Positions 4,144 through 44,283 are shown, counted from the first letter of the stretch. The stretch: DNA of 64,000 bases from an uncultured bacterium (GCA_947085985.1 CAMTYL010000003.1:298108-362107); one strand, 5' to 3'. Notes: generated by a model not told the origin, from the letters alone. Numbers and translations are program-made.

Positions 4144-4340
4144 TACCTCTATTTTACTACAAAACCCTCCTATATACGAGCAACGGTTGGAGCAAGGTTT
4201 TGACAAAAACAGTGGATATGCTACAACAGATGTACTGACATGTGCGCCGGGAGACTCGTAACAGAGGGGCAACCCTCTTTTCGCGTTCCCTGCGTAGGAT
4301 GCAGTTTGTACAAACCCAAGGAATCCTGAAAGGATCCAAC

Positions 4341-4580
4341 ATGACCGACAAGAAGACCACTGTGAAGACCGGCAACACCGTCGGCACGCTCCTGCTCATG
4401 GGCGCCACGGCCATCGTTACCATGATCGCCATGTCCAGGAAGAAGCAGATCGTCGACGGCATCAATGCCGGCATGACCGCGGCGGCCGCGGCTGCCCAGA
4501 AGCTGGCCGACGGCGGCCTGCAGGCTCTGGTGCCCGACAAGATGAACGGCGGCACGCACGCCGCCCCGTCCGGCCACTAG
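4341..4580 (+). CDS. GC-rich small membrane protein (79 aa), unknown function
   Basis: RBS 'AAAGGA' 8 nt upstream of ATG; hydrophobic core 'GTLLLMGATAIVTMIAM'; ~68 % GC vs ~50 % backbone; terminator hairpin 4633-4666. Confidence 0.5.
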   Translation: MTDKKTTVKTGNTVGTLLLMGATAIVTMIAMSRKKQIVDGINAGMTAAAAAAQKLADGGLQALVPDKMNGGTHAAPSGH

Positions 4581-4692
4581 GACCCACGGTCCAGACAGCA
4601 ATCAGGGGATAACCCAGACCCTGAAAGAAGTCGACCCCGCGAGCGCGAGCTTGCGGGGCTTTCTTTTTATTACGACACATCCACAGGGGTAT

Positions 4693-4727
4693 TGACAAGT
4701 CCTCTGAATACTTGGTAGTATTTTTGG
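4693..4727 (+). promoter_or_regulatory. sigma70-type promoter TTGACA-N18-TAGTAT
   Basis: Consensus -35 hexamer and good -10, about 70 nt upstream of ATG at 4801 with RBS GAAGGA. Confidence 0.55.
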
Positions 4728-4800
4728 GTTCGTGCCCAATTGCAAGCATTGCATTGGGGTTTCGCGAATTGAACTACTCAGACGAAGAAGGACTGCAACC

Positions 4801-5214
4801 ATGAAAATGCGTATGCTTTCCGCGGCCGCCATCGGCGTGATCGCGTTGACCGCTTCCGGCGCTTCCGCTTCGGCCCTGGCCGACAGCAATCCGAACCGTG
4901 TGCTCGACCTCGCCCCCGAATCCGGCGGCATCACGTCCATCGACGACGGCTCCGGCATCACCGGCGGCGGCTCGCGCGACCAGGATCTGTATCAGAGCGG
5001 CATGAACATCGGCGGCACGATCGGCGACGACCAGAAGTCGGACTACGGCCTGGCCCAGATGGCCGTCGCCAGCGATGACCGGACCGCCCGCCCGCTGTTC
5101 CGCGACGGCCACATCGCCTATGCCGCCGACACCGACGACGACTCGCCGCCGGCCTACATCATCGCCGCCGGCCTGACCGCCACGACCGCCGCCGGCGCCA
5201 TCGCGCCGAGCTAG
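4801..5214 (+). CDS. GC-rich secreted Gly/Asp-rich protein (137 aa) with N-terminal signal peptide
   Basis: 'MKMRMLSAAAIGVIALTASGASASALA' signal peptide; own promoter and downstream hairpin 5247-5268; ~68 % GC. Confidence 0.5.
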   Translation: MKMRMLSAAAIGVIALTASGASASALADSNPNRVLDLAPESGGITSIDDGSGITGGGSRDQDLYQSGMNIGGTIGDDQKSDYGLAQMAVASDDRTARPLFRDGHIAYAADTDDDSPPAYIIAAGLTATTAAGAIAPS

Positions 5215-5376
5215 ACCACCCACGGTCGAGCACGCACTGCATGGGAAGGGGGCGACTTCGGTCGCCCCCGACCACCCTTCTTCTCTCTGTTTGATCTTTT
5301 GAGACAGCCACCTCACGGTGGTTTTTTTATTTACAAAATGTGCTATAATGCACTCATAGGAGAAAGGAGGTCAACG

Positions 5377-5526
5377 ATGCCTACTAGTGGCTTTCAGCAG
5401 CAAGACCGCTCCGGCAGCACTTTTTTGCCCACCCTTGGGCAGTGCACGCCGCAACAGCACAGGTCCAAGGGTACCAGCCCCGCCCCAAAGGAGGAGCAGC
5501 CGGACGAAAAGCCCAACAAGGACTAG
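5377..5526 (+). CDS. 49-aa GC-rich peptide ORF with strong RBS
   Basis: Preceded by terminator hairpin+T7 (5308-5328), extended -10 'TGcTATAAT' (5341-5349) and RBS 'AGGAGAAAGGAGG'; followed by two hairpins (5524-5565, 5592-5620). Confidence 0.4.
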   Translation: MPTSGFQQQDRSGSTFLPTLGQCTPQQHRSKGTSPAPKEEQPDEKPNKD

Positions 5527-5745
5527 CGACAGGTCTGGAGCACACGCTCCGGGCCTGTCGGCGCCCTTTCCCTCCGTACCTTCCGAAGGCCCGCACGACC
5601 CGTGCGGGTTTTGTCATATATATAGGTATATGCTACAAATAGGCTACATCGCGAGCGTGCAAACAGGACGCGAGTGGGCTAACCCCTGACATACCGTAAG
5701 GCAGTCAGTACCCACCTGCATAAGGCGCGCCGCTCCCGATTTCAT

Positions 5746-6897: not shown

Positions 6898-6969
6898 TAT
6901 CCGAGAGGATGGAACAAACAAAACGCCGAGGGCTAGCCCTCGGCGTTTTGCGTGCTACCATAGCGACAT

Positions 6970-7308
6970 ATGACAGGCCCAGAAGGATTTGGTACGTACA
7001 ATACGTTCAAAGTAGATAGTGACGCCCCACAAACAAAGCTCGAGCAAACACCAGCTGCAGAGGACGGCGTCTTTGCAGAGTTCTCTCCAGCAGAGCTGAA
7101 GGAACTTACCAGTGGCCCCTTGAACCAAGTGGGCTGGCTTATGGGTGACTTGAATCACCCAGCGGTTGCCTATCTCTCCGGCGACACTATTAATGCAATG
7201 CGCGCCTACGTAGCGACCGCAGTGAAGGAAGAGCGTGCTCCCCTCGCGCGAGCAATTGCAGCCGGCTTTGAAGAGGCCTCCGAACGCGAAATGGACAAAG
7301 CTGCGTAG
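6970..7308 (+). CDS. hypothetical protein (112 aa)
   Basis: ORF with protein-like composition between rpsA terminator and hairpin 7326-7345; no recognisable family. Confidence 0.3.
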   Translation: MTGPEGFGTYNTFKVDSDAPQTKLEQTPAAEDGVFAEFSPAELKELTSGPLNQVGWLMGDLNHPAVAYLSGDTINAMRAYVATAVKEERAPLARAIAAGFEEASEREMDKAA

Positions 7309-7357
7309 CAGCAAATGAAGAACTCCGCGTAGGACACGGAGCCCTCCACGGAGTAGT

Positions 7358-7840
7358 CTAGTTGTTGCAGAGCGTACCGCCCTGATAGAAGTGTTCGCCC
7401 ATGACGAGCGAACCACGATAAAGGACTCCCTCACTTCCGCTGAACCGGCTGAACGTACTGCCGGTCCTTGGCGCGTTGGTGTACTGAAGCGAACCGATCG
7501 TGAAGACATCGGGACCACGCCCTCCGTAGAAGCTACGGTTGCGGTAGTTGGATCCGAGAGCCCGCTTCAGGAATTTGGACGCCTCGGGCAGGTACCAGCC
7601 GTAGTATTGCATGACCCAAACAGGCTTATGGTCCTCGACAATCAGCGTACTGCCGGCCGAGTAGGTGCCGCCATTCGCAAACCAGCTGTCTTCCACCATA
7701 AAGTGCCCACAGGGGCTGTAGTAGCGGAACCGCTTCATGCAGACTTCCACCGTAACCGTTTCCGGCTGATTGTCAGAGACGTAGCCCTGGTTGAGCGCGT
7801 CAAACAAGACGCCTTTCAACACTTGTTCGCTTGAAGGCAT
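7358..7840 (-). CDS. hypothetical protein (160 aa), moderately GC-rich, downstream of thermonuclease gene
   Basis: RBS 'AAAGGGG' upstream; 45 nt after stop of 7886..8428 gene on same strand (possible operon); hairpin terminator downstream. Confidence 0.45.
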   Translation of the reverse strand: MPSSEQVLKGVLFDALNQGYVSDNQPETVTVEVCMKRFRYYSPCGHFMVEDSWFANGGTYSAGSTLIVEDHKPVWVMQYYGWYLPEASKFLKRALGSNYRNRSFYGGRGPDVFTIGSLQYTNAPRTGSTFSRFSGSEGVLYRGSLVMGEHFYQGGTLCNN

Positions 7841-7885
7841 GATGTGCCCCTTTCAGTTGACCCAAGCGGAGTCTACTACAATCAG

Positions 7886-8428
7886 CTACTTCTCGCACAC
7901 TCCAGGGGCCCAGAGTCCACGGCCAGCAGCTTCGGCTTCTTTCTGCGCCGTCTTAAATTCTGCCTGATACTTGTATGGAAGTCGATACGTGTACTCATAC
8001 GCGTACCCTTCTTCAATCATGTATCTATTGAACAAAAGTCCGTCCTCACGGATTACATAGCCGAGTAGGCGTCCGTATTTGTCGCGCTCACCCTGCGAGC
8101 TTTCGGTTTCTATGCGCACCTGTTGCCCATCTAGTAGCTCCTTTGCCTTTGCAGAAGCTTCTTTGCCGAAACACTCCACGGGCCTGCGCGGGTCCACCGT
8201 CTCTGGCGTATTCATACCAATCAATCGCACCGTCTCCTTCTTCCCATTCATATCAATATGAATGGTGTCGCCGTCCACCACCTTCAGTACACTGTAGTGT
8301 GTCGTGGAGGCAACCATACTGTCAGTAGTATCAACAGGTGCTGTTGGAGTGCTCACTTGTATGCCAAAAAGAAGAAGCAGTGCTATGAGCAACTCGGAGC
8401 CAAATTGCAACAGCGTATCCTGAATCAT
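7886..8428 (-). CDS. thermonuclease (staphylococcal/micrococcal nuclease-like, SNase fold), secreted/membrane-anchored
   Basis: 'VLKVVDGDTIHI...RLIGMNTPE' SNase motif, N-terminal hydrophobic segment; start taken at internal ATG (ORF caller used upstream GTG at 8446). Confidence 0.7.
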   Translation of the reverse strand: MIQDTLLQFGSELLIALLLLFGIQVSTPTAPVDTTDSMVASTTHYSVLKVVDGDTIHIDMNGKKETVRLIGMNTPETVDPRRPVECFGKEASAKAKELLDGQQVRIETESSQGERDKYGRLLGYVIREDGLLFNRYMIEEGYAYEYTYRLPYKYQAEFKTAQKEAEAAGRGLWAPGVCEK

Positions 8429-8647
8429 GTTCTTACTAGTGTACACGGAGTGCGAAACTTAAATTGCACGTATAGGTTGAGAGTGGTAGTTCAAGCATTA
8501 TATGGACCTCGTAGGTTCATGTATCAAATCAAATTGATCGCTGGTTGCCGCACCATTTCCTACTTCGCCTCGTCTGTGTTATGAATACCGCGGACTGTTG
8601 CAGCAGCTGTGGGCGTCGTGCCTGTACCTGCAACAAAAGGAGGTCAC

Positions 8648-9137
8648 CATGACCAGCACCAAGACTAGGAGCTGTGGCGGGTGCACCGCCTGTTGCCATA
8701 CCCATTCCGTGGATATGGACGGGGTCTATACACCCCGATTCAAAGACTGCTCCCACTGCGTAATCGGAGTGGGTTGTGGTGTGTACGAGTCGCGTCCGTA
8801 CTCCTGTTCTATATACCGCTGCCTCTGGCTTACGGGAATGCCCGATCATATGCGGCCCGACAAGTTTGGCGTCGTGCTTGATGTCTGGACGGTGCCGAAC
8901 GAAACAATGCGGTTCCTAAACTTTTGGGAAGTATACCCCGGAAGACTCAACGAACCTGACGTCGGAGAGTTCATAGAGGGACTGCTCGCCACTCGACCCT
9001 ACGTGATCATCTGCCGCCGGCCGGATTTCGCGGTAGATATCCGCTTTCCCCACGGTATTGATATCGGGGAACAAGAGCGGCTCACGCGAACGATCCTGAA
9101 AGAGATACAAGTGCAGGGCGAATACGCCAACGCGTAG
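8648..9137 (+). CDS. YkgJ-family Cys-cluster protein (CxxCxxCC putative Zn/Fe-chelating domain)
   Basis: 'CGGCTACC' motif near N-terminus plus further Cys; RBS 'AAAGGAGG' 6 nt upstream of ATG; GC-rich. Confidence 0.55.
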
Positions 9138-9155
9138 TGGCGCGCACCACGACAC

Positions 9156-9189
9156 AGGGCCCGACGAGCAATCGTCGGGCCCTTTCTGC
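9156..9189 (+). terminator. hairpin terminator AGGGCCCGACGAGCAATCGTCGGGCCCTTTCTGC; copy 1 of an identical 34-nt element
   Basis: Perfect 10-bp GC stem followed by TTTCTGC; identical copy at 10429-10462. Confidence 0.6.
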
Positions 9190-9247
9190 ATACGCAGTTT
9201 TACAAATTAGTTCCGGGCGGCCCCTGGTGGGGCCGCCCGGTAATGGC

Positions 9248-9853
9248 TCAATCAATAACCTGGCAGTAGCGCTGGACCGACAGGTCGAGCGTACCCCACG
9301 TGGTCCACTGCCGCAGGAACTGAAGCGCGAAGCGCATCTGATGCTCCTTGGACTTGCCGTAAAGGGCCTCTTTGAGGCGACCCTTAGCAGCCCACAGTCC
9401 CGGGAGGAACCAGATTTCCCAGTACAGACCCGAGTCACCCCGCCGCGATCGCATGCAGGCGAATCCGCACTCCGCCAGAAGTTCCGCGTTGGCCCTGTAC
9501 CCTTCCGGAGTGTAGGAGTAGCCGCAGAGATGCTGGATGAAGATAGATTGCGACTGCTCGTTCCAGTTCACAATCGGCTCAAACAGTTCGGCCTGGTAGT
9601 GCTCCGGATTCTTTTCTTCACGAGTCGGCGTTCGCCACTGCGGAAGCATGGCGTCCTCGGTGGGGGCGGGCACCGGCTCGTGCGCGGGGGCGAATTCAAG
9701 CCGCCCGCCGACAAGCCGCGCCCACCAGTGTCCATGCATCATGCCCTGGATCTTCTCGCCTTCTTCTTCGGTGAGGTCGGAGATAGTTACCTCGCCTCGT
9801 GGACCTCCACGAGACATGGAAATTCGCGCACGAGGCGGTTCGTTGCTGTCCAT
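9248..9853 (-). CDS. hypothetical GC-rich protein (201 aa)
   Basis: Protein-like composition (W/Y/F-rich) in contrast to the Arg-rich antisense ORF 9137..10291; perfect hairpin CCGGGCGGCCCCTGGTGGGGCCGCCCGG (9213-9240) immediately after stop. Confidence 0.5.
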   Translation of the reverse strand: MDSNEPPRARISMSRGGPRGEVTISDLTEEEGEKIQGMMHGHWWARLVGGRLEFAPAHEPVPAPTEDAMLPQWRTPTREEKNPEHYQAELFEPIVNWNEQSQSIFIQHLCGYSYTPEGYRANAELLAECGFACMRSRRGDSGLYWEIWFLPGLWAAKGRLKEALYGKSKEHQMRFALQFLRQWTTWGTLDLSVQRYCQVID

Positions 9854-9955
9854 GGTCTAGCCCTTCTGTTGAACATGCCTGCCTATGGTGTACAGGAGAT
9901 GGAAACAAATCGCAACCAGGAGATTTCCGCCGCTTTTGACAACACAGAAATATGC

Positions 9956-10291
9956 ATGCACACTATGGGCAACGGGACCGGCCCCTACTACCCGTTAAGG
10001 AGGTGTTCTTTGAAAGAATGCTTTAATACCGTCGCCGCTCTCAGGACCAAAGCCCTAGAGCGCGGTGTAGTACTTCGTACGCCCCACGACGCAGCCGCTC
10101 GGTCCGCCCTAAAGCAGACCGACGAATGGGTCCTCGCTACCAAGGACCCGCGGACAGGCTGGATAGTTGTGCCGACGCACGACAACCGAGGACTCCCCGA
10201 GGAGCAGTGGTACGCGCTCTGGAAAGACATGAAGGTGGAGCTGGAAGCACAACAGTGCGACGGCTCCTGGCACGACTACTTCACGCAATAA
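9956..10291 (+). CDS. hypothetical GC-rich protein (111 aa)
   Basis: In-frame ATG downstream of TTGACA (9936-9941); followed by RBS+58-aa ORF (10309-10485) and terminator copy 2. Confidence 0.4.
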   Translation: MHTMGNGTGPYYPLRRCSLKECFNTVAALRTKALERGVVLRTPHDAAARSALKQTDEWVLATKDPRTGWIVVPTHDNRGLPEEQWYALWKDMKVELEAQQCDGSWHDYFTQ

Positions 10292-10428
10292 GTTTCTGGG
10301 AGGAAACAATGAACGCGTGTAATTGCCCCGTGCGACTGGACACCCCGACCGGTGTCCGTCGCACGGGTTTTTATTATCAGCGCGGCGGCCTTTGCAATAT
10401 GTATGTAGACCTGCGCACCAAACCGGAA

Positions 10429-10462
10429 AGGGCCCGACGAGCAATCGTCGGGCCCTTTCTGC
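10429..10462 (+). terminator. identical second copy of the 34-nt hairpin terminator element
   Basis: Exact sequence match to 9156-9189. Confidence 0.6.
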
Positions 10463-10486
10463 CAGCTTTCGCGGTCGCTATGTAGC

Positions 10487-11050
10487 CTAGTACCAAACAC
10501 CGTCTACCTTGCGTGCCTCAAGCGTAATTCTTTCTGAGTCTGATATGTGGATTTTGACACGAGCTACATTGCTCTCAAACGTCCACTCGGTTCTTTCAGC
10601 GGTCAACATGTCACGAGTAATAGACATGGAAGCCAAGAATTCAATGATGTTCTTGAAGTCTTCGTCGGAAGTTGCAGCGAACTGAGCCTGTGCACTTTCT
10701 GACACGGCCTTTGCTAGATACGCTCTAATTTCGGGCAGATTACCCGTTTCAAGAAGTGCCTGGCGTTTAAGGAGCGCCTCTATCACGAGAGCTTTCTCGC
10801 TAGTGTCTGTGGCGCTCGCCTGCGACTGTGCAGGAGCGGCCGCAGTAGGCGCAGTTGCTGGCGTGGGAGCCGCGGACACTGGCACAGAATCATTTTCTTT
10901 TTCCATGGTGTTTGTTTCGGTTGACGGTGTAATAGCAGTATCTGGAATTGGTGCAACGTCCGTTGCTTGATTGGTGTATAGGTATGCTCCGACACCCGCC
11001 ACAATACTACCTACTACGGCAAGTAAAATTATTACAATTTTCATCTTCAT
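10487..11050 (-). CDS. hypothetical membrane-anchored protein with Pro/Ala/Thr-rich linker
   Basis: N-terminal TM 'IVIILLAVVGSIVAGVGAYL'; start codon abuts conserved promoter module. Confidence 0.45.
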   Translation of the reverse strand: MKMKIVIILLAVVGSIVAGVGAYLYTNQATDVAPIPDTAITPSTETNTMEKENDSVPVSAAPTPATAPTAAAPAQSQASATDTSEKALVIEALLKRQALLETGNLPEIRAYLAKAVSESAQAQFAATSDEDFKNIIEFLASMSITRDMLTAERTEWTFESNVARVKIHISDSERITLEARKVDGVWY

Positions 11051-11095
11051 ACCAAAACTATATCATTTCTGTACTTCTGGGAATTAATGTTGACC
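11051..11095 (-). promoter_or_regulatory. copy 1 (divergent variant) of repeated promoter module; core AATGATATAGTTTTGGT directly 5' of ATG
   Basis: Shares core with copies at 12662, 13355, 14363, 15265, 15916. Confidence 0.5.
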
Positions 11096-11098
11096 AAC

Positions 11099-11998
11099 CT
11101 ACGAAACAAGTTTTGAAAGAAGTGCCATGCGTACCGTAAGTCCGTAGCCTGCTTGTTTGAAATACACTGCTTTCTCCGACATATCTACGTCCGGCGCTAT
11201 TTCATCAACCCGAGGAAGCGGATGCATGATTATAGAGCCCTGCTTCATGGCGTCAGCATGTGCACGAGTAAGTACGTACTTCCCCTTCAATTTTTCATAC
11301 TCGCCAGCATCTGCGAATCGCTCCTTCTGAATTCTGGTCATGTAAACCACGTCTGCATCTGCGAGCACAGATTCCAAGTCCTCTGTTTCTATAACCAGCA
11401 CTCCCCGTGCGCGCAGATACTCAAGTATGTCGGCACCCATGCTAAGTTCTGGTGGAGACACAAAAGTAAGAGAAATATTTTCGTATCGTGCTAAAAGATA
11501 TGCGAGTGACCGTATGGTCCTTCCGTGCTTAAGGTCGCCCACTGCAGTTATGTGCAGACCATCCGTCTTCCCCACCTCCTTCTGTATCGTGTACAAATCT
11601 AAAAGTGCTTGCGTGGGGTGCTGTCCAGGCCCATCACCTGCATTTATTACTGGAATAGTAGCAACCTGCGAGGCACGATTACACGCTCCTTCTTCAAAGT
11701 GACGCAGCACCACTACATCCGCGTACTGATTCATCATCTTCATCGTGTCTTCTATCGTTTCGCCCTTGGCCGCCGACGAGAACTCTTTGGCATTTTCAGT
11801 TGAAATAACCGTACCGCCGAGCCGCTGCATCGCAGATTCAAAAGAAAGCCTTGTCCTTGTAGAAGGCTCATAGAAGAGCGATGCCATAATCTTTCCCTGA
11901 AGCGAGGTATTGCGGACTCCTTCCAGTGTGTCTGCCAGTGCAAATAGCTCCTCAAGTCCCTTCCTATCAAATTGCTGCGATTCAAGTACGTGCTGCAT
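11099..11998 (-). CDS. pyrB: aspartate carbamoyltransferase catalytic subunit
   Basis: 'STRTR', 'HPTQ' and 'HPLPR' signature motifs. Confidence 0.85.
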   Translation of the reverse strand: MQHVLESQQFDRKGLEELFALADTLEGVRNTSLQGKIMASLFYEPSTRTRLSFESAMQRLGGTVISTENAKEFSSAAKGETIEDTMKMMNQYADVVVLRHFEEGACNRASQVATIPVINAGDGPGQHPTQALLDLYTIQKEVGKTDGLHITAVGDLKHGRTIRSLAYLLARYENISLTFVSPPELSMGADILEYLRARGVLVIETEDLESVLADADVVYMTRIQKERFADAGEYEKLKGKYVLTRAHADAMKQGSIIMHPLPRVDEIAPDVDMSEKAVYFKQAGYGLTVRMALLSKLVS

Positions 11999-12013
11999 GA
12001 CTTCTTGAATCTT

Positions 12014-12661
12014 CTAGAACTCGTGAGCTTCTTCCTCTGCGAGATTTACAAAAGAAATTCCTACCGCTTCTAGCTGGCCGCCTATCCAGCGCGGAATGGA
12101 GGTCTGTCGGTAGTTCTCTGTATACATGGCGTCGTGTATCGGGAATGCTACGCGTGGGTTGATAGTTTTCGCGTAATCAATAGCGGTAGAGATTTTATGC
12201 CATGGTCCGCCCGTTGGGAGCGCGAGAATTTCCACCTGCTTATTTGGCACATCGTGGAGCGCGTCTCCTGGCATGTAGAGCTTACCGGCGATTAGAAAGC
12301 CGGTGTTTCTACATGGTGACGAGTCGCCGTAGATAATCGCATGCTCGGTACCAAAGCTTTCTATGGACACCCCTGCAACGTCCACTGTCTCGCCAGGTTC
12401 AATAGCAGTCCACGCAATACCCGCCTCTGTCAGCTTCTCACCTACTCCTGCATGCGTAATCACCTGCGCATCGGGATTTCTCGCGAGCACTTCCTGCAAC
12501 TTCGGTATATCAAAGTGGTCCTGGTGCTCGTGTGTGATAAGCACGGCAGAAAGGCCGGACACGTCCGGCACGGTAGCGCTGTATGAACCAATGTCGGTAA
12601 GAATTTTCACTCCGTCAATTTCCACCAGCAAACAGGACTGTGCATACTTCGTGATGTTCAT
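12014..12661 (-). CDS. MBL-fold metallo-hydrolase
   Basis: 'ITHEHQDH' HxHxDH zinc-binding motif; start abuts promoter module copy 2. Confidence 0.7.
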   Translation of the reverse strand: MNITKYAQSCLLVEIDGVKILTDIGSYSATVPDVSGLSAVLITHEHQDHFDIPKLQEVLARNPDAQVITHAGVGEKLTEAGIAWTAIEPGETVDVAGVSIESFGTEHAIIYGDSSPCRNTGFLIAGKLYMPGDALHDVPNKQVEILALPTGGPWHKISTAIDYAKTINPRVAFPIHDAMYTENYRQTSIPRWIGGQLEAVGISFVNLAEEEAHEF

Positions 12662-12700
12662 ACCAAAACTATATCATTCCCGCATTCCCAAGAATTGGTG
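12662..12700 (-). promoter_or_regulatory. copy 2 of repeated promoter module (ACCAATTCTTGGGAATGCGGGAATGATATAGTTTTGGT|ATG)
   Basis: Extended -10 'TGATATAGT' 6-7 nt upstream of ATG implies leaderless transcript. Confidence 0.55.
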
Positions 12701-12714
12701 GTGGCTGACCTGAC

Positions 12715-13320
12715 TCACGTAAGAATCTCTTGCTGCGTCAGAAACACTTCCACGGCATCGGCAAGCTTTTGGTGACCAGCACTGTTAGGATGCAGTCCAT
12801 CATCTAGGTCCTCGTTAGTAAGAAGCGGGTATACATCAAGTAATGGGAGGGCGTGTTCGCCAGCAACCTGTTTGATAAGCCCGTCATAGAGCCGGACACT
12901 TTGGTTGTCGTAGTTTTGGTCCTTGTCAGTCCACGGAATTGGCGTGAGCTTACTGTCTTCTACCTGGTTTAGTCCCAAGAAAAATACAGAGTCGGTAATC
13001 TCTCGAGCTTGCGCAACAAGCGCATGTAGATTTGCAACAAAATCCTCTGGCAAGACTCTTGTGTTCTCTCGAGTACCTGTGTACTGCGAATCATTAATAC
13101 CAATTGCAAAAAGAATGACGGTGCCTGCGCTAGACTTTCTAGCTTGTGCCTCAACCTTGAAACGAGCAAGGAGGTGCCCCGTGTTGTCTGCAGAAATACC
13201 GCAATTATAAAAACTGATATCCTGCTCTGCGTACTTGTTCCGTAATCTCGTGACCCAACCACCTCCCTCATTATCGTTCGCGCCCCAAGTGATACTGTCG
13301 CCGAATACTATAATTCTCAT
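12715..13320 (-). CDS. SGNH/GDSL-family hydrolase
   Basis: 'IIVFGDSITWG' GDSL block I, later 'GLHPN', 'DGLHP' blocks. Confidence 0.7.
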   Translation of the reverse strand: MRIIVFGDSITWGANDNEGGGWVTRLRNKYAEQDISFYNCGISADNTGHLLARFKVEAQARKSSAGTVILFAIGINDSQYTGTRENTRVLPEDFVANLHALVAQAREITDSVFFLGLNQVEDSKLTPIPWTDKDQNYDNQSVRLYDGLIKQVAGEHALPLLDVYPLLTNEDLDDGLHPNSAGHQKLADAVEVFLTQQEILT

Positions 13321-13354
13321 GGAGTAAGTGTATCAAATATGCCCCGTCCTTACC

Positions 13355-13393
13355 CCAAAACTATATCATTCCTGCGTTTCTAAGAATTAGTTC
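13355..13393 (-). promoter_or_regulatory. copy 3 of repeated promoter module, here 35 nt upstream of the start of 12715..13320
   Basis: CCCCAAAACTATATCATTCCTGCGTTTCTAAGAATTAGT. Confidence 0.5.
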
Positions 13394-13408
13394 TGACAGA
13401 TCCATTTA

Positions 13409-14362
13409 TTACCGATGCGAAGGGCTGGATTGCGCAGTACTAATCTGTTCAAGGCGGGTAAGCATTTCAGGTGGAGAGTATGCCGACACCTCTGTAAAAG
13501 CCCTGTCTAGAAAGGCCTGTATGTCCGCTGGCCTTGCATTAGCAAGCGCGGGGGTTGCTTCAACAGCACGCACCATACGGTCCGCTATAACTGCGGACAT
13601 AAGCGAAGAATGGCTTCCATCGAACAGATCTGTTTCTGACTTAAAATCAAATCCCGTTTCTGCTCGCCCGTCACGAGTTGGTTCCATTCCGAGTGCAGAA
13701 AGGTGCTGAGTCACTATGGCGCGAATTCCAGCTGACTGCTCTTCCTTTCCATAATGCACAACGAGAGAGTCTGGGTGCTTAAGAAAATACTGCAAGTTCC
13801 CTGGAATTTTAAATGAGATGCGGTCGCCATTCTTTATAGAAAGGTCAGACAGGTCTTTCGCGAGGGCCGGCAGAGCATTCTGAAATGCCATCACTCGTGC
13901 AAGCACCTCTTCCGAGCTACCCGAACCAGCTGGGACAGTAAAGTATTCCTTGCGTGAAATTACCACCTCAACGGGCGCTCCTTCTATGGTCTTCTTCATG
14001 CGCGTTCGGTTCCTTTGCGCGTCCTTCGTGCCTGTATACGAAAACCAACCAATATCGTTATCTACCGGAAGCCCCTGAGCGATGGCTTCGCGAGCTACAT
14101 TCTTGAGATTTTCTTCGTACGCCTGTGCTGCGGCTTCGCCTCCAATGTCTTTTTCTAACCTCTTCAGTTCTGTGTTTGATACCCGATTCACCATGTAACT
14201 GTAAAGAGAGCGCGTGAGCCACTCACGCGAAGGATTATTCTTAAGTTGCATGACGATTGATTGCAAACCCTCCTCGCGGGCAGAATCAGTAAACTTTTCT
14301 GGCATCGTAACGGTCGCAGAAACCTGTTCCTTATCCGCACGTACCTTCTCAATTCCCTCCAT
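13409..14362 (-). CDS. hypothetical protein (317 aa)
   Basis: Long ORF, start abuts promoter module copy 4; no recognised family. Confidence 0.4.
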   Translation of the reverse strand: MEGIEKVRADKEQVSATVTMPEKFTDSAREEGLQSIVMQLKNNPSREWLTRSLYSYMVNRVSNTELKRLEKDIGGEAAAQAYEENLKNVAREAIAQGLPVDNDIGWFSYTGTKDAQRNRTRMKKTIEGAPVEVVISRKEYFTVPAGSGSSEEVLARVMAFQNALPALAKDLSDLSIKNGDRISFKIPGNLQYFLKHPDSLVVHYGKEEQSAGIRAIVTQHLSALGMEPTRDGRAETGFDFKSETDLFDGSHSSLMSAVIADRMVRAVEATPALANARPADIQAFLDRAFTEVSAYSPPEMLTRLEQISTAQSSPSHR

Positions 14363-14401
14363 ACCAAAACTATATCATTCCTGCGTTTCCAAGAATTGGT
14401 G
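14363..14401 (-). promoter_or_regulatory. copy 4 of repeated promoter module
   Basis: ACCAAAACTATATCATTCCTGCGTTTCCAAGAATTGGT immediately after 'cat' of the start codon. Confidence 0.55.
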
Positions 14402-14440
14402 GGAACGACACCTTTTAGGCGACGCTAGATCTTTATACGG

Positions 14441-14470
14441 GTTGACAAAGTGTATATTATAGTGTTATAC
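14441..14470 (+). promoter_or_regulatory. sigma70-type promoter TTGACA-N18-TATACT for 14508..15188
   Basis: Consensus -35; transcript would start ~35 nt upstream of ATG. Confidence 0.5.
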
Positions 14471-14507
14471 TATATGCAGTTTTCCCAACCACATCGAGGC
14501 TTGCGAA

Positions 14508-15188
14508 ATGACCTTTGCGAATGAAATCGAAGACCGGCCCGTTCCGGTTATCAAGGTGGAGCCCACCGAGCGGGGTTTCCTGCGTAGCGACTTCAGAGAC
14601 ATCTACGGAACTTTCTGCTCGCTGCAAGAGAGCTCTCTGGCATCTGAAGACGCCATCTGGCTCGGCACGAACATCGAAGGTGTCGGTGGCAATCGCATGC
14701 ACCTCGACCAGAACATGGTCTCGGCGATGCTGCCCTATCTCATGCACTTCGCCAAACACGGCAACCTGCGTCTGAAGAGGATCGGTGTCGTCGGTTACTG
14801 TCCGCCCACCAAGTTCGACGAGAACGAGGCGCGACGTGCAATCATCGACGCCTACGACCAACTGGCCGACCTTTACTTCGACCAATCGATCGCTATCGTG
14901 TCTGGCCTGAGCGACGTCGGCGTGTTGGCCATCGCCTATGCGGAAGCGCAGAAGCGAGGGTGGATGACCGTGGGCGTGGCCTGCGAACGCGCCATGGAAC
15001 ATCCGCTGTTCCCCGTGAACGTTCCGATCGTCGTTGGCGAAGAGTGGGGTAACGAAAGCCCCATGTTCGTCGGCATGCTCGACGGCATCGTCCGCATCGG
15101 CGGCGGCAAGCAGTCCATCCGTGAGACCGAAGAGGTCAAAGCGCGCGGACTGCCCACGCTCGAGTACGACGTGTCCGTCTTCGACTAG
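14508..15188 (+). CDS. GC-rich protein, possibly Rossmann-like LOG/SLOG/DprA-superfamily (low confidence)
   Basis: Pattern 'IAIVSGLSDVGVLAIAYAEAQKRG...TVGV...IVRIGGGKQSIRETEE' resembles LOG/SLOG 'sGxxxGxM...GGxGTxxE' layout; own promoter and terminator (15210-15246). Confidence 0.3.
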   Translation: MTFANEIEDRPVPVIKVEPTERGFLRSDFRDIYGTFCSLQESSLASEDAIWLGTNIEGVGGNRMHLDQNMVSAMLPYLMHFAKHGNLRLKRIGVVGYCPPTKFDENEARRAIIDAYDQLADLYFDQSIAIVSGLSDVGVLAIAYAEAQKRGWMTVGVACERAMEHPLFPVNVPIVVGEEWGNESPMFVGMLDGIVRIGGGKQSIRETEEVKARGLPTLEYDVSVFD

Positions 15189-27738: not shown

Positions 27739-27742
27739 TGCA

Positions 27743-33289: not shown

Positions 33290-33341
33290 TTTGCCATAGC
33301 AGAGAATGGCCTACAATTAAGCCGCTTTCTGCTATGGCAAA
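33290..33341. promoter_or_regulatory. 14-bp perfect inverted repeat TTTGCCATAGCAGA-N24-TCTGCTATGGCAAA between divergent promoters
   Basis: Seen directly; candidate operator or bidirectional terminator/insulator. Confidence 0.4.
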
Positions 33342-33472
33342 TGCAAGTTGAATATCAAAGAGCTTTTTTTATTATACTACATAATATTGCTATTTGTCAA
33401 ACAATCAGTAGCACGCCAATACTTTTTAATCCCCCCAACTCCTTGAAGAAGATTTGGTATACTTCAAGCACT

Positions 33473-34399
33473 ATGAACGATTTGATAATTATTGGGGGTG
33501 GGCCAGCAGGAATTGCAGCGGGAGTGTATGCCTCAAGGAAGCGCGTGAAGACGGTGCTCATAACCGAGGAAATTGGTGGCCAGTCCACCGTGTCTGACGG
33601 CATACAGAACTGGATAGGCACGGTGAATATTCCGGGAGCAGAACTCGCCAAGAACCTGCGTGAGCACCTGCTTGCGTACAAGGACGATGTACTCACGCTC
33701 GCTGAGGGTGAGAAGGTGGAGAAACTTGAGAAGATTGAGGGTGGGTTTCGAGCCACCACGACGAGTGGAAAGACTACAGACGCCAAGGCGGTACTCCTTG
33801 CGGCCGGCGCTGGCCGAAAGCAGCTCACCGTACCTGGTGCAAATATCTTTGAACACAAGGGTGTTACCTACTGTGCCAGCTGTGATGGACCAATGTTCTC
33901 GGGCCAGGATGTTGCGGTGGTGGGTGGAGGAAACGCAGGCGTCGAGACTGCTGCGCAGCTTTTAGCATATGCAAAGTCGGTGACCATTATTCACCGCAGG
34001 AGCGAATTTAAGGCGGACGCTATTACCGTGGAGAAAGTCCTCCAACATCCGAACCTGCGCGCCATGACTGACACCGAGCCGGTGGAAGTGCACGGTGAGA
34101 AATTTGTGACGGGCATGACCGTGAAGAACGTGAAGACTGGTGAGACAGAGCTCCTCCCTGTCACCGGTGTGTTCGTAGAAATTGGCGTGCTTCCAAACAC
34201 GAGCTTTGCAAAGGACCTCGTACAGCTCGATGAAGTCGGGCGTGTCGTCACCGACCCAAGGACGCAGCGGACAAGTGTGGAAGGTGTATGGGCAGCTGGA
34301 GATTGTACCGACGAGCTATACCATCAGAACAACATCGCCGCAGGAGACGGCGTTAAGGCGCTCGAGGACATCTACCAGTGGCTCGCCCGAAATAGATAA
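33473..34399 (+). CDS. trxB: thioredoxin-disulfide reductase
   Basis: 'IIIGGGPAGIAAG' FAD motif, redox-active 'CASCDG', second Rossmann 'VVGGGNAG'. Confidence 0.85.
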   Translation: MNDLIIIGGGPAGIAAGVYASRKRVKTVLITEEIGGQSTVSDGIQNWIGTVNIPGAELAKNLREHLLAYKDDVLTLAEGEKVEKLEKIEGGFRATTTSGKTTDAKAVLLAAGAGRKQLTVPGANIFEHKGVTYCASCDGPMFSGQDVAVVGGGNAGVETAAQLLAYAKSVTIIHRRSEFKADAITVEKVLQHPNLRAMTDTEPVEVHGEKFVTGMTVKNVKTGETELLPVTGVFVEIGVLPNTSFAKDLVQLDEVGRVVTDPRTQRTSVEGVWAAGDCTDELYHQNNIAAGDGVKALEDIYQWLARNR

Positions 34400-34453
34400 G
34401 AAGAAACCCCCGGTGTTAGCCGGGGGTCGCCGCATTGCGGACTTGAAGGTGAA

Positions 34454-35200
34454 CTAGATAGTGCGATTGGTCATCTGGTCGGTGATCTTCTTGGTCAGAC
34501 CGTCGCCGAGAATGGCGCGCAGCAGACAGCTGCGGATTCCGCCTTTCCAGGTTTCGTGCGGGTTGCGAACGATGTCGCAGATGTCGCGCAGCAGATCGCC
34601 GTAGCCACGCGCCTTCGCGGCGAATTCCCGACTGGTGCCGAGGACTCGGTGGTACTCTTCGTGCAGGTTGCGATAGTCGGCGGCGGCGGCCTCCAGCATT
34701 TGCTGCTGAGTGACCCGCTCGCCTTCCCGTTTATGCGACAGGACGACCGCGCGAGCCAGTTGCCGGCGATTGATTTTGCCGTTGATGAACCGGAAGAAGG
34801 TCATAACGTCGACGAGGAGATACTCCACGCCGTCGGTCAACCTCACCGGCATCTTCGTGACGAAGATGCGGTTGGGGCGGTATTGGACCATAAACCCGAA
34901 GTCATCTCCCCCGAACCCGCCACTTTGGATGAACGGGTGGACCGGATCGTACTGATGCTCGTACTCCACGAACAGTTTGCCGTCCTTCCAGAAATACGGC
35001 TGGAAGTTGTAGTGGTCGCTGAGGGTGCTGCTCTTGAAGACCAGCAGACCGTTCGTTCCCTTCTTGGGAGCGAAGGCGAACTGCCGGTACGTGAGCCCCG
35101 TCGGCGGAAACATGCCTTCGAGGCACGTCGAACCGACGAATTCGCCAGCACTAATCAGGTCGAGGGTGGCGACACCATTCACAACGTTGACACCAGACAT
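34454..35200 (-). CDS. hypothetical GC-rich protein (248 aa)
   Basis: Own promoter TTGACA-N17-TATTAT (35318-35346), 110-nt leader with three CGAUG-loop hairpins, terminator 34413-34435. Confidence 0.5.
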   Translation of the reverse strand: MSGVNVVNGVATLDLISAGEFVGSTCLEGMFPPTGLTYRQFAFAPKKGTNGLLVFKSSTLSDHYNFQPYFWKDGKLFVEYEHQYDPVHPFIQSGGFGGDDFGFMVQYRPNRIFVTKMPVRLTDGVEYLLVDVMTFFRFINGKINRRQLARAVVLSHKREGERVTQQQMLEAAAADYRNLHEEYHRVLGTSREFAAKARGYGDLLRDICDIVRNPHETWKGGIRSCLLRAILGDGLTKKITDQMTNRTI

Positions 35201-35317
35201 TTTCTGTAGACCTTTTCTCTAGCATCGCTAGGATAGCGGGAGCGGCCACATCGTGGCATCCCTTGGCCAGTTTGAATCCTCTCTAGCCCGATGAGGGGAA
35301 ACATCGTTTCCACATAT

Positions 35318-35346
35318 ATAATACTATATTGTATATAAATTGTCAA
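35318..35346 (-). promoter_or_regulatory. sigma70-type promoter TTGACA-N17-TATTAT
   Basis: Consensus elements read on minus strand. Confidence 0.55.
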
Positions 35347-35654
35347 TACCATGAAGGGTTGCTGGGATACAGAGAAACCGCGCTCCAAGGGAGCGCGGTT
35401 TTTCTATACTGAACGGGTGGTGCTTACGCAGCCGCCTCGTCGCCAGTCTCCACAGTAGGAGCCTCGTCAGCCGGAGCCTCAGGTGCTGCTTCTACGTTCT
35501 CTCCCTCTGCAGGGATGATTGTTTCATCGTCCATCATAGTGTGTTGGAGAATGGCTTTGCGTCTGCCAGAAGCAGAAAGACAAAGCCATCCAATGCTTAG
35601 TTGGCTGGCAAATCGACCTTGTTTCCATTATACCAGACTAGGGCCTGCAAGCTA

Positions 35655-40713: not shown

Positions 40714-40802
40714 GCGGAGAGGGGGAGATTCGAACTCCCGAGGAACTTTCATCCCTGCCGGTTTTCGAAACCGGTGCATTCGACCACTCTGCCACCTCTC
40801 CA
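40714..40802 (-). tRNA. tRNA-Ser (anticodon CGA), type II with long variable arm
   Basis: Cloverleaf folded by hand: acceptor GGAGAGG/CCTCTCC, anticodon loop TTCGAAA, T-arm GGGAGTTCGAATCTCCC. Confidence 0.8.
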
Positions 40803-40865
40803 GGGCGTATTGTCCCGACATCCTAGCATTTTGGGGCATTAAAATGTAGGATGTGTCTACACAGA

Positions 40866-40937
40866 CGGTCCCATCGTCTAACGGTTAGGACGCCCGCCTT
40901 TCACGCAGGAAATCGGGGTTCGATTCCCCGTGGGATC
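40866..40937 (+). tRNA. tRNA-Glu (anticodon TTC)
   Basis: Acceptor GGTCCCA/TGGGATC (one G-U), anticodon loop CTTTCAC, T-arm CGGGGTTCGATTCCCCG; one C-A mismatch in anticodon stem; terminator 40949-40990. Confidence 0.65.
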
Positions 40938-41056
40938 ACACTGAGACAAAATTAGGGTTGCTATACATTGGCAACCCTAATTTTGTTTTCCGGCTGTCTC
41001 TTAGGTAATGCAGTGGCTGCACTTGAACCGTGACTAGTACTTAGTACAATGTACAA

Positions 41057-42584: not shown

Positions 42585-42743
42585 CCAAAAGTCTAATTAT
42601 ACCTAACGGACAGAACGACTCTCATCTGAAGAAACATCGATGATACTGTACGGATAAAACTAATTGACGATTATCTGTCAGCAGTATAATGTCCATAGCA
42701 GTACCGCGTACATTCCTCAAACAAAAAAGAACGGAACATTCCG

Positions 42744-43028
42744 ATGAAGAAGCTTTTTGTTTCTGTGGCCATTGCCGCCACGATGTTCGCCGGCGCTTCT
42801 GCTCCGGTCGCCGTCGCCCAGACTGCTCCGACGGCGCAGCTCCAGAGTGTCCAGACAATATATGGCTACCGGTGCTGGACCTACGACACCGCTGGCTACT
42901 ACTGGGCCGGATGGCACTCCAGCCTACCCCGAGCCAGGCAACTCGCGATGGCCGCCTGTCGGCAGAACCGGGGCTATGCGGCGGTGTGCTACCACGTCCA
43001 GGGGCCCTGCGAGAAGGGCTACTTCTAA
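42744..43028 (+). CDS. GC-rich secreted small Cys-containing protein (94 aa)
   Basis: Signal peptide 'MKKLFVSVAIAATMFAGASAPVAVA'; promoter TTGACG..TATAAT upstream; terminator GAGGCTCCGTCGG..CCGACGGAGCCTC 43040-43075. Confidence 0.5.
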   Translation: MKKLFVSVAIAATMFAGASAPVAVAQTAPTAQLQSVQTIYGYRCWTYDTAGYYWAGWHSSLPRARQLAMAACRQNRGYAAVCYHVQGPCEKGYF

Positions 43029-43074
43029 GTTCCAGACAAGAGGCTCCGTCGGTTTTCCGACGGAGCCTCGGCTT

Positions 43075-43698
43075 TTATACTATTCCGAGCTCTTCGCGAG
43101 AGAGAGCCCCGTCACGAAGCACAAGAGGTGTCTCGCCCGTGTAGAGCACGATCGTAGAAGCAAGCACTCCTTCACGGGGACCGTCATCAACCACCAAATC
43201 AACGAGCTGCGACTCTGCCCCAAGCGACACAATGATGTCAATGGGAAGACTTTGCGTCGGTTCCCCTGCCTTGTTTGCGCTGGTGGCTGTGTACGGCGAG
43301 AAAAACTCTTGTCCAAGTGCGCGTACAAAGGGGTCGTTTGGAACACGCATAGCAACCGCTCCGTTGTATACCACCGCTTCTGGAAGGTGGTCCCGCGCGG
43401 GTACGACAAGGGTAAGCGCTCCTGGTAAGTGGGTGTGTGCGAACACCGCTTGTGGCTCCGCTAGCTTTCCGTGCTCATAGAGCGCGTGCACGTCGGGCAC
43501 CACAATGGATACCGGCTTCTTTGGATCTCGTTCCTTAATTGCCCACAGGCGCTCTAGTGCGTCCTGGTTCTCGACGTCAGCCGCCAACCCATAGAGTGTG
43601 TCGGTGGGATAGAGCACAATGCCACCATGCGCGAGTGCTCGCGCAGCCTCTTTTGCTGCTTCCTCGTATCCCACGTCGCTCACGCGGACAAATCTCAT
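43075..43698 (-). CDS. tsaC: L-threonylcarbamoyladenylate synthase (YrdC/Sua5 family)
   Basis: 'YPTDTLYGLAAD' YrdC signature. Confidence 0.8.
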   Translation of the reverse strand: MRFVRVSDVGYEEAAKEAARALAHGGIVLYPTDTLYGLAADVENQDALERLWAIKERDPKKPVSIVVPDVHALYEHGKLAEPQAVFAHTHLPGALTLVVPARDHLPEAVVYNGAVAMRVPNDPFVRALGQEFFSPYTATSANKAGEPTQSLPIDIIVSLGAESQLVDLVVDDGPREGVLASTIVLYTGETPLVLRDGALSREELGIV

Positions 43699-43740
43699 AT
43701 ATTGAATCGTAGCGTGGGATGCGGTATTGTGCGAGTGTTC

Positions 43741-43813
43741 GCGCGGTTAGCTCAGTTGGTAGAGCGCGTCATTGACGTTGACGATGTCGGGGGTTCGAAT
43801 CCCTCACCGCGCA
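43741..43813 (+). tRNA. tRNA-Val (anticodon GAC)
   Basis: Acceptor GCGCGGT/ACCGCGC, anticodon loop TTGACGT, T-loop TTCGAAT; terminator 43819-43845. Confidence 0.85.
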
Positions 43814-44047
43814 CAAACATAGACCCCGAAAGGGGTCTATTGTTTTGAGCGGTAGCCTGTCTGGGAGACAGGCGTGAGGGATTCGAAGACCTTGCGAGCA
43901 TACTTTGGAAGAAACTGACAAAGTATCCGCAAGGTGTACTGATCCTGTAAGGATCGAAAGCGTAATCGCTTATCCCTCACCCAAAAAGTGCACAATCAGA
44001 TTTTTTTAGCTCTTTAGTGCTAGCCTTTTATCTAGAGGAGGAATCGC

Positions 44048-44185
44048 CATGCGAGAATTCACTAATGTGGACCGGCTGGACATCGGCATCCACAGCAGCG
44101 GCTTACTGGTGCCAAGCATCTTCGGCGTACTGGTTGCCGCAGTTGTCCTATGGGTCGTCCTTAAGAACTTTGGACGGCGCGTATG
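44048..44185 (+). CDS. 45-aa GC-rich single-TM peptide with consensus SD (AGGAGG)
   Basis: 'LLVPSIFGVLVAAVVLWVVL'; terminator ACGCCGCCCG..CGGGCGGCGT at 44195-44240. Confidence 0.4.
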
Positions 44186-44283
44186 AAACCGCCCCTACAC
44201 GCCGCCCCGCGCATAACGCAACGGGCGGCGTCACCTTTTCCCTGTCTCGCGAAACAGCCCTAAACGCGCTACACTCGCCCTAT

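Follow-up and report, generated by a model that had tools for sequence, protein, structure and literature searches.

A probable leadered accessory gene set with its own codon usage in a Patescibacteria chromosome, including an apparently orphaned diversity-generating retroelement target

A 64,000-nucleotide stretch of DNA from an uncultured bacterium (GCA_947085985.1 CAMTYL010000003.1:298108-362107), here called the window and numbered from its first letter, contains short GC-rich genes scattered between housekeeping genes. We call these genes cassettes and number them by site, C1 to C10. What are they, and why do they differ from their neighbours? The reading that we favour, with modest confidence, is that they form a leadered accessory gene set with a codon dialect of its own, and that one of them, C8, is a diversity-generating retroelement (DGR) target that lacks the retroelement and carries a leader RNA. 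The window itself can be assigned from its sequence to the chromosome of an uncultivated member of Patescibacteria (Paceibacteria/Parcubacteria; candidate phyla radiation, CPR), because its FtsZ is 80-81% identical to that of metagenome-assembled genomes (MAGs) named Parcubacteria or Paceibacterota. Its GC content is 52.6%, and its large proteins are housekeeping ones (GyrA, S1, NrdAB, HisS-like, FtsA, FtsZ, a class-I aminoacyl-tRNA synthetase, LepA, TsaC and TsaD); RNase P RNA is also encoded. A DNA similarity search of the window against E. coli genomes and phage records gave 0 matches.

For the comparison of composition, 13 cassette open reading frames (ORFs) at ten intergenic sites were set against 56 backbone genes, 69 genes in total. 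The cassette ORFs have a GC content of 0.54-0.70 and a GC content at third codon positions (GC3) of 0.66-0.94 with a mean of 0.754, while the backbone has 0.516 ± 0.034 and 0.547 ± 0.064, respectively. The Mann-Whitney p of 3e-8 for this difference is circular, because the cassette set was chosen by GC. A preliminary description of the window had listed ten or more GC-rich cassettes and expected them to stand out from the backbone once GC and GC3 were computed. They do so, but two of the listed coordinates were wrong. The region 8648-10485, taken as one gene, holds three ORFs on both strands (8649-9137 on the plus, 9248-9853 on the minus and 10010-10291 on the plus strand), and 44048-44185 has in-frame stops and lies inside a conserved DHH-family backbone gene (44017-45141, GC3 0.56). 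C4a, C6a, C6b and C8 are only moderately raised (GC3 about 0.66) and overlap with backbone genes such as gyrA (0.64) and nrdA (0.65).

All 69 genes were scored for expression signals without reference to their GC content. A Shine-Dalgarno (SD)-like motif was found for 11 of the 13 cassette ORFs and 11 of the 56 backbone genes (Fisher p 2e-5). A strong hairpin with a T tail, defined by a folding energy of -15 kcal/mol or lower within 130 nt downstream, follows 12 of 13 cassette ORFs against 8 of 56 backbone genes (Fisher p 1.6e-7). A promoter with at least 10 of 12 consensus positions is present for 5/13 and 3/56, respectively (Fisher p 0.005). For C1, C3 and C10 the promoter scan overlooked good promoters, which are of the extended -10 type or have a 15/16-nt spacer; the promoter of C6a is of the leaderless type, and C4a and C6b have no convincing one. 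The SD motifs and GC-rich hairpin terminators described earlier on nearly every cassette were thus confirmed, while the near-consensus promoters described with them were confirmed for a part of the set. Over all genes, GC3 is correlated with SD length (rho 0.45, p 1e-4), and also with the strength of the terminator (rho -0.48, p 4e-5). When the window was scanned for promoters and terminators in general, no overall enrichment was seen, but the best-scoring matches are the cassette signals.

The backbone shows another pattern. A -10 box matching at least 5 of 6 positions and ending 4-12 nt 5' of the start codon occurs in 17 of the 56 backbone genes, against 0-5 of 56 at control offsets, and in none of the 13 cassette ORFs. 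The earlier remark that many backbone genes look leaderless therefore holds. It appears that two expression architectures coexist in a tiny-genome bacterium, a leaderless core and an accessory part which is leadered and SD-dependent, and this bears on gene calling and on the prediction of surface-expressed products. A separate observation concerns an element of about 45-60 nt in six copies (11043-11106, 12654-12717, 13346-13409, 14355-14418, 15253-15316 and 15908-15971; ...AATTCTTGGAAACGCAGGAATGATATAGTTTTGGTATG on the gene strand). In the block at 10.5-16.5 kb, successive genes on the minus strand carry it at their 5' ends. It corresponds to an extended -10 promoter (TGaTATAGT) whose end lies 6 nt before the ATG, that is, a leaderless promoter module repeated per gene.

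Are the cassettes recent insertions? In seven distant relatives with FtsZ 69-81% identical, the core genes gyrA-orf121-lactamaseB-like-S1-pth-lepB-hisS-orf86-ybeY-ftsA-ftsZ-trxB are contiguous with short gaps, and the extra DNA of the window falls exactly at the cassettes. The slot of C7, from hisS to orf86, is empty in distant relatives. S1 and pth, adjacent in the more distant relatives, are separated in the window by a 15.4-kb block (6898-22298) containing nrdAB, SNase, OTCase-like, GDSL lipase and other genes. A sister genome from Hainich groundwater (GCA_964366435.1), whose core proteins are 92-99% identical to those of the window, also has a block between S1 and pth, with differing content. 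It has C5 (94%), C9 (71%), C6b (66%) and a C3-like ORF at the same positions as the window; it lacks C4a-c, C6a and C8, and has its own different GC3-rich ORFs (GC3 0.85-0.88). In a third genome C9 lies next to trxB, and the locus L097 keeps the C1-C2-C3 slot with rearranged coding parts of GC3 0.84-0.95. Positional homologs with high GC3 were thus found in related genomes for C1-C3, C5, C6b, C9 and C10, while C4a-c, C6a and C8 are absent from close relatives or replaced there.

The inherited positions and the retained high GC3 indicate that the cassettes are not a set of very recent insertions. The preliminary description had called their acquisition recent, and had regarded the same genes at the same positions with the same composition in related genomes as evidence to the contrary; for several cassettes this is what was found. 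Its view of the cassettes as single-gene accessory modules fared better, as the flanking housekeeping genes are adjacent in relatives and the content differs even among sister genomes. Signatures of mobility were sought, and no integrase, transposase, tRNA-adjacent insertion site or flanking direct repeat was found, with the exception of a 34-nt perfect repeat round part of the C4 islet; the tRNA genes at 40.7-43.8 kb are not next to insertion boundaries. From these comparisons, the cassettes can be described as a fast-evolving, partly exchangeable accessory fraction of the lineage.

One cassette, C8, can be placed in a known type of system. Its features are as follows.

32649-33218, minus strand: C8 coding sequence (CDS), 189 amino acids (aa), GC3 0.66
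32652-32774, minus strand: equivalent of the variable region (VR), the last ~123 nt of the gene
33371-33400, minus strand: C8 promoter, TTGACA-18-TATAAT (12/12)
33234-33364, minus strand: C8 leader RNA, three hairpins with conserved junction nucleotides; 133-nt element, 142.7 bits with covariance model R1
32562-32599, minus strand: GC-rich hairpin downstream of C8, which could be a terminator and/or a hairpin accompanying DGR target sites

On sequence grounds, C8 is a member of a family of CPR DGR variable proteins. The family is very large and unnamed, with 2680 representative clusters. Two viral copies (L102 and L103) are the same except at scattered positions in the VR, the C-terminal W..W..WL..W..PAAV segment. 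In about 25 of 80 metagenomic loci, a copy of the last ~123 nt of the gene with 84-88% identity lies ~330 nt downstream as template repeat (TR), and is followed by avd and a reverse transcriptase (RT) gene. In the VR/TR pairs of 17 loci, 297 of 308 mismatches are at TR adenines, which is the DGR signature; the family thus combines a 3' VR with a nearby TR that differs from it almost solely at adenines. The AlphaFold2 (AF2) model of C8 has a pLDDT of 95, and its weak fold matches are dominated by C-type-lectin-like (CLec-like) domains, including those of TvpA, Mtd and Lcl; the family profile had no match among PDB sequences. In the C-terminal VR of about 123 nt, the TR at its distance downstream, the adenine-specific mismatches, the adjacent Avd and RT, the single short target without transmembrane (TM) segments or known domains, and the putative CLec-like fold, the family resembles DGR clade 2 of CPR (Roux et al. 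2021, PMC8144416; Wu et al. 2018, PMC5758913). This clade is restricted to CPR, and its short targets without known domains are suspected to be novel C-Lec variants (PMC8144416).

Is C8 itself still part of an active DGR? RT and Avd (by tblastn) and a TR-like repeat of any cassette 3' end were searched for in the 64-kb window, and none was found; C8 is therefore regarded as an orphan member of the family and not as an active DGR. Homology between C8 and the DGR-linked copies starts at the ATG and breaks off 86 nt beyond the stop codon. The C8 region, at the consensus level, is identical in contigs from three samples. Thus C8 seems to be an orphaned, apparently static target, unless an RT elsewhere in the genome acts on it, and in both respects, the missing TR, avd and RT within 64 kb and the VR identical across samples, it differs from the CPR DGRs. 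In the same slot between ftsZ and trxB, the sister genome carries a complete DGR whose target is not C8 (TR/VR 80% over 118 nt; Avd; RT). Apparently the RT module was lost at C8, which we infer in preference to its never having been gained. On another point, avd is opposite in strand to the target, TR and RT in the CPR DGRs (L106, L107, L115, L132, L173, L086 and others), as seen from reversed tblastn coordinates; the avd gene of L086 was also called on the minus strand, while in the Bordetella phage the arrangement is co-oriented.

A further feature of C8 is its leader, which starts ~8 nt downstream of the -10 box and reaches to just 5' of the SD. Among family members with a protein identity of only 50-74%, the leader DNA is 72-94% identical. 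The covariance model R1, with 133 positions and 31 pairs, matches directly upstream of the family gene in most of 81 loci, and in at least 50 loci the element is placed downstream of the -10 box and upstream of the SD. Double changes occur in 27 of the 31 pairs, the share of paired cells is 95.8% as compared with 34-52% in slid controls, and 0 of 500 shuffles reach the observed values. The conserved G-U pairs indicate that it is the sense RNA that folds. The element thus has what is expected of a cis-regulatory structured RNA, a covariation-backed structure in the 5' untranslated region (5'UTR) on the sense strand. R1 also has a match of 48 bits upstream of the sister genome's target, which is a genuine DGR target but not homologous to C8. 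As a control of specificity, R1 was run on 1.25 Mb of other Patescibacteria DNA and gave 0 matches, so a general occurrence of a leader or DGR in the ftsZ-trxB slot of other Patescibacteria was ruled out. Copies of this leader on the other cassettes of the window were likewise ruled out, as R1 has a single match there. In viral contigs, two exact matches to the leader core are due to chance, and the covariance model does not recognise them. In two loci the leader and family gene form tandem arrays of two or three units (leaders at 768-895, 1662-1785 and 2830-2980 of L177, and at 1565-1702 and 2389-2481 of L141), and each of these arrayed DGR-target paralogs carries its own leader.

The C8-type leader is a well-supported and apparently undescribed structured RNA on CPR DGR targets. 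It had no match in Rfam 15 except generic hairpin noise, and a leader ahead of a DGR target is not mentioned in the DGR surveys searched (PMC5758913, PMC8144416). The RT-1...RT-19 motifs are also covarying structured RNAs linked to DGRs, but RT-associated motifs adjoin the RT gene and do not lie ahead of the target (Weinberg 2017, PMC5737381). RT-10, for example, is between TR and RT, while the C8 leader precedes the target and persists without an RT. Its position in the 5'UTR directly upstream of the SD is like that of translational riboswitches; unlike them, it has no Rfam 15 match, and its ligand and expression platform are putative. Minimum free energy (MFE) folds pair the conserved 5' end of the leader (segment GUUCUUUG) with the SD.

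Then where does the GC excess of the cassettes come from? At two-fold pyrimidine sites, C/(C+T) is 0.75 in cassettes against 0.58 in the backbone, and 0.79 in DGR targets against 0.59 in their own RTs. The corresponding values at four-fold sites are 0.44, 0.26, 0.61 and 0.32 for C, and 0.08, 0.24, 0.05 and 0.21 for A. In Lys, Glu and Gln codons, G/(A+G) is 0.61, 0.66, 0.69 and 0.52 in the same order. The excess in the cassettes therefore consists of C over T at two-fold pyrimidine sites and of C-rich, A-poor four-fold sites, with no rise of G in Lys, Glu and Gln codons. The missing G shift in most cassettes argues against a simple high-GC donor. The codon dialect of nrdAB differs again, with a strong two-fold bias and flat four-fold sites. 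DGR targets exceed their own RT by 0.24 in GC3 in 11 of 11 DGR cassettes, and the non-VR part of the target is above the mean GC3 of neighbouring ORFs in 37 of 41 loci (p 7e-8), from genomes of 33-57% GC. This range of host GC indicates that the bias is intrinsic to the class of DGR targets and scales with the host, which leaves little room for a high-GC donor as the general cause. Neither the structured leader ahead of the target nor its C-rich and A-poor bias relative to its own RT is described for CPR DGRs in the papers searched. As DGRs are most abundant in CPR and their targets are least understood there, a leader RNA and a synonymous bias of the target add two features to what is known of them.

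These results suggest the following scenario. Each unit would be transcribed independently and would consist of a sigma70-type promoter, a leader of 35-150 nt that is often conserved, an SD, an ORF and a strong hairpin terminator. The units occupy intergenic slots between housekeeping genes which are themselves mostly leaderless or operonic, and the slots turn over among sister genomes by gain, loss, swap and rearrangement, with occupants diverging much faster than the core. The dialect, C-ending and A-avoiding, would belong to the gene class and be maintained in orthologs. Its cause, in DGR targets and in most cassettes, is most likely selection tied to expression or stabilisation of leadered mRNAs, and not the footprint of a recent high-GC donor that has not been ameliorated. 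C8 stands where the sister genome has a complete DGR, with the TR-avd-RT module missing and the leader retained, and the leader probably governs how the variable protein is translated, perhaps by covering the SD. A bolder proposal, which we put forward only tentatively, is that the leader represents a new class of regulatory RNA (riboswitch or protein-binding) dedicated to DGR variable-protein genes of Patescibacteria, and that the C-rich, A-poor bias, which DGR targets have in common with the other leadered cassettes, is a selected trait of this expression class. In that proposal, the leader might let a cellular or host signal govern how far a hypervariable ligand-binding protein is expressed or is available for retrohoming, a suggestion that is speculative; equally speculative are the reasons for the bias, which might be a scaffold shielded from adenine-directed mutagenesis or a stabilised mRNA. 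If it is true, genes of outlying composition in CPR genomes would point to a functional class rather than to foreign DNA.

Could the cassettes instead have been acquired recently from donors of high GC, perhaps a bacterial host or the phages of that host, with too little time for amelioration? We consider this possible, though doubtful for the set as a whole. Several observations weigh against our favoured reading and in part speak for import. GC3 reaches 0.94 and GC content at second codon positions (GC2) reaches 0.56 in C1 and C2, and GC2 is high in C10 too. A G shift as from a GC-rich donor is seen in C1, C10 and perhaps C2 only, with G-ending Lys, Glu and Gln codons dominating C1 (1.0) and C10 (0.91). 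More distant relatives have no cassettes at these slots. The C4 islet is unique to this genome, being absent from the sister genome, and with identical 34-nt repeats flanking it resembles a recent insertion. C5 has a PHROG-type N-terminus and a phage-like outgroup context, and its bias is not intrinsic to its family and may be imported, because its one-domain relatives elsewhere are GC3-poor. DGRs are known to move horizontally (PMC5758913). On the side of expression, the window has no classical highly expressed genes such as those of ribosomal proteins and EF-Tu to compare with, and its S1 gene (rpsA) is not rich (GC3 0.56). A general rule that accessory ORFs are GC3-richer than conserved ones was unsupported over 63 Patescibacteria loci, with a mean difference of -0.004 and both high and low outliers. 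An RT may act on C8 in trans from elsewhere, as the window covers 64 kb. The closing helix between the leader 5' end and the SD was also unsupported in an own-versus-cross duplex test (p 0.25).

Against import in general, C2 and C9 have no homolog outside Patescibacteria among 5.8e9 proteins, and the families of C5 and C8 are centred on CPR. Sister genomes have inherited several of the cassettes in matching positions and with GC3 unchanged, the G shift is missing in most cassettes, and in the C8 family the excess of GC3 follows the GC of each host. Integrase or transposase genes, tRNA-adjacent insertion sites and close viral relatives were looked for and not found. A phage-like or mobile source, as suggested before, finds support in two cassettes, C5 and C8. 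Horizontal acquisition is plausible for C1, C2, C4, C5 and C10. On the whole the earlier observation was right, and its reading as recent horizontal gene transfer was partly supported but too simple. A mutational explanation, GC-biased gene conversion (gBGC) or another recombination-linked bias that drives often-recombining slots to high GC3, would agree with slots that differ among sister genomes and with a synonymous bias that persists in orthologs. It is nevertheless improbable: the adjacent RT and avd of the same DGR cassettes are not GC3-rich, the promoters and leaders within the units are not GC-rich either (the leader is ~50% GC), and the bias is specific to the coding strand, with C well above G and A depleted more than T, while strand-symmetric gBGC predicts otherwise.

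The small single-gene units, with a GC-rich inverted repeat 3' of each and near-consensus promoters, also bring to mind integron gene cassettes or an engineered construct, both named in the preliminary description, and a metagenomic mis-assembly would be a third source of odd composition. The likeness to integron cassettes ends with the compact module and its 3' inverted repeat. The units here have their own promoters, lie in both orientations and are spread through 40 kb with essential genes in between; the proteins scanned with Pfam included no intI-like gene, an integrase/attI or an attC-type array was not found either, and the hairpins are mutually different ordinary terminators with T tails. 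Over 6-15 kb, contigs from independent sequencing runs, samples and assemblers agree with the window at 0 mismatches, so the window is neither chimeric nor engineered, and positional orthologs exist in other MAGs. Integron, construct and mis-assembly are thus ruled out by independent assemblies and orthologous loci, and we give them hardly any weight. Another parallel may be the phage morons of Hendrix and Juhala, autonomous promoter-gene-terminator units of deviant composition that lie between conserved genes and vary among relatives. The cassettes are likewise autonomous, deviate in composition and vary in content between conserved genes, but they are in a cellular chromosome with housekeeping neighbours (ftsZ, trxB, hisS, S1) and no prophage context, and several are stably inherited. 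The favoured reading, a leadered accessory set with its own dialect, would provide a counter-example to taking GC-rich, signal-rich genes as recent imports, with a bias that is inherited, class-specific and independent of genome GC. GC3-outlier ORFs were also noticed, with crude ORF calls, in L026, L027, L047, L062, L008 and L082; in L026 the core has GC3 0.23 and outliers reach 0.70. Genes of outlying composition therefore seem to recur among CPR genomes.

The other cassettes, together with an extra GC3-rich gene absent from the earlier list and the leader of C9, are located as follows.

4200-4668, plus strand: C1 unit, promoter TTGACA-N16-(TGc)TACAAC at 4200-4227
4341-4580, plus strand: C1 CDS, 79 aa, one TM segment, GC3 0.94; terminator 4635-4668
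4692-5328, plus strand: C2 unit, promoter 4692-4721, hairpins 5248-5269 and 5306-5328
4801-5214, plus strand: C2 CDS, 137 aa, signal peptide, GC 0.70, GC3 0.91
5330-5613, plus strand: C3 unit, extended -10 promoter 5330-5349, SD AAGGAGG, terminator 5590-5613
5377-5526, plus strand: C3 CDS, 49 aa, GC3 0.76
7358-7840, minus strand: orf160, DUF5680, GC3 0.73, the extra gene
8649-10462, both strands: C4 islet, three ORFs with hairpins between, two identical 34-nt hairpins
8649-9137, plus strand: C4a, Cys-rich, GC3 0.66
9248-9853, minus strand: C4b, GC3 0.72, terminator 9213-9240
10010-10291, plus strand: C4c, GC3 0.70
14442-15246, plus strand: C5 unit, promoter 14442-14471 (11/12), terminator 15212-15246
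14508-15188, plus strand: C5 CDS, 226 aa, GC3 0.78, phrog_3849-like N-terminus and SLOG/LOG-like C-terminus
20964-21572, minus strand: C6a, 202 aa, GC3 0.67, leaderless-type promoter, terminator 20898-20937
21656-22216, minus strand: C6b, 186 aa, GC3 0.66, terminator 21601-21634
28653-29049, plus strand: C7 unit, promoter 28653-28680 (11/12), terminator 29011-29049
28716-29000, plus strand: C7 CDS, 94 aa, three TM segments, GC3 0.78
34398-35346, minus strand: C9 unit, promoter 35318-35346 (11/12), terminator 34398-34428
34454-35200, minus strand: C9 CDS, 248 aa, GC3 0.79
35201-35317, minus strand: C9 leader, ~117 nt (about 4815-4933 in L086 and about 415-528 in L092)
42664-43076, plus strand: C10 unit, promoter TTGACG-15-TATAAT at 42664-42690, bidirectional terminator 43040-43076
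42744-43028, plus strand: C10 CDS, 94 aa, signal peptide, Cys-rich, weak DUF4189 match, GC3 0.77

The cassette proteins are mostly orphans. Pfam gave nothing on them beyond the weak SLOG and DUF4189 matches, PHROGs yielded hardly anything, and PADLOC gave 0 matches on 10 cassette proteins, so that the toxin, immunity or defence function considered earlier found no support. Close viral relatives of C5, C4b and C9 were not found. C2 has two homologs, both partial, and C9 has four relatives only, all from Patescibacteria, among the 5.8e9 proteins. The C9 orthologs adjoin trxB (71% identity and GC3 0.83 in L086, 68% and 0.75 in L092). The leader of C9 is conserved at 95-100% in L086 and ~88% in L092, against a DNA identity of 77% in the CDS. 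It shows a compensatory change from CCAC/GUGG to CCGC/GCGG, in a set of sequences too few for a covariation test, and it has no match in Rfam. Near it, between orf414 and the C9 promoter, lies a small acidic ORF of 37 aa (35424-35537, minus strand; MMDDETIIPAEGENVEAAPEAPADEAPTVETGDEAAA) with a hairpin terminator at 35373-35403; it is almost identical in the sister genome.

In the sister population L097, the promoter, 5'UTR and N-terminus of C1 are kept, and its version of C2 has neither the signal peptide nor the intervening terminator and promoter. The 5'UTR of C1 (4228-4340) is almost identical there (about 2010-2138). About 40 nt past the promoter it contains a terminator-like hairpin (AGAGGGGCAACCCTCTTTTCGCG, 4263-4285), which could be an attenuator or a small RNA; no Rfam match was found for this 5'UTR. 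Positional homologs of C3 lie upstream of S1 in L089 and L097, and C10 has a homolog with 41% identity at the same position in L007.

The C4 islet is missing at the sister genome locus L089, and its proteins have no Pfam and no PADLOC match. A perfect 34-nt GC-rich hairpin, AGGGCCCGACGAGCAATCGTCGGGCCCTTTCTGC, occurs at 9156-9189 and again at 10429-10462, 1273 nt apart, and brackets C4b and C4c. To judge from the sequence, the duplicated hairpin may have been left by an insertion that brought a terminator with it or copied one. At L089, C6b has an ortholog with 66% identity and GC3 0.62, and C6a is absent, with a 65-aa gene of GC3 0.88 in its place. C6a is weakly similar to C8 (E 0.019).

The ortholog of C5 at the same position in L089 is 94% identical and has GC3 0.80. 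Outside the clade, the nearest two-domain relative of C5 has a phage-like setting, surrounded by many small ORFs on the same strand. One-domain relatives are common in Patescibacteria, where they occur in NAD-salvage operons and are GC3-poor. Short SLOG/LOG-like proteins akin to the C-terminus of C5 are encoded at 5001-5423 of L186 and 5001-5417 of L187, and the neighbourhood of such proteins is conserved in Patescibacteria, with PRPP synthetase, NAPRTase, NadE and the SLOG protein followed by NrtR. This context suggests a nucleotide-processing role in NAD metabolism for the short SLOG proteins. As to the RNA genes of the window, a class A RNase P RNA is encoded at 59936-60310 on the minus strand, and six tRNA genes lie at 40714-40939, 43741-43814, 50840-51459 and 61227-61312. 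The only one of these RNA genes near a cassette boundary is that of tRNA-Val, 665 nt downstream of C10.

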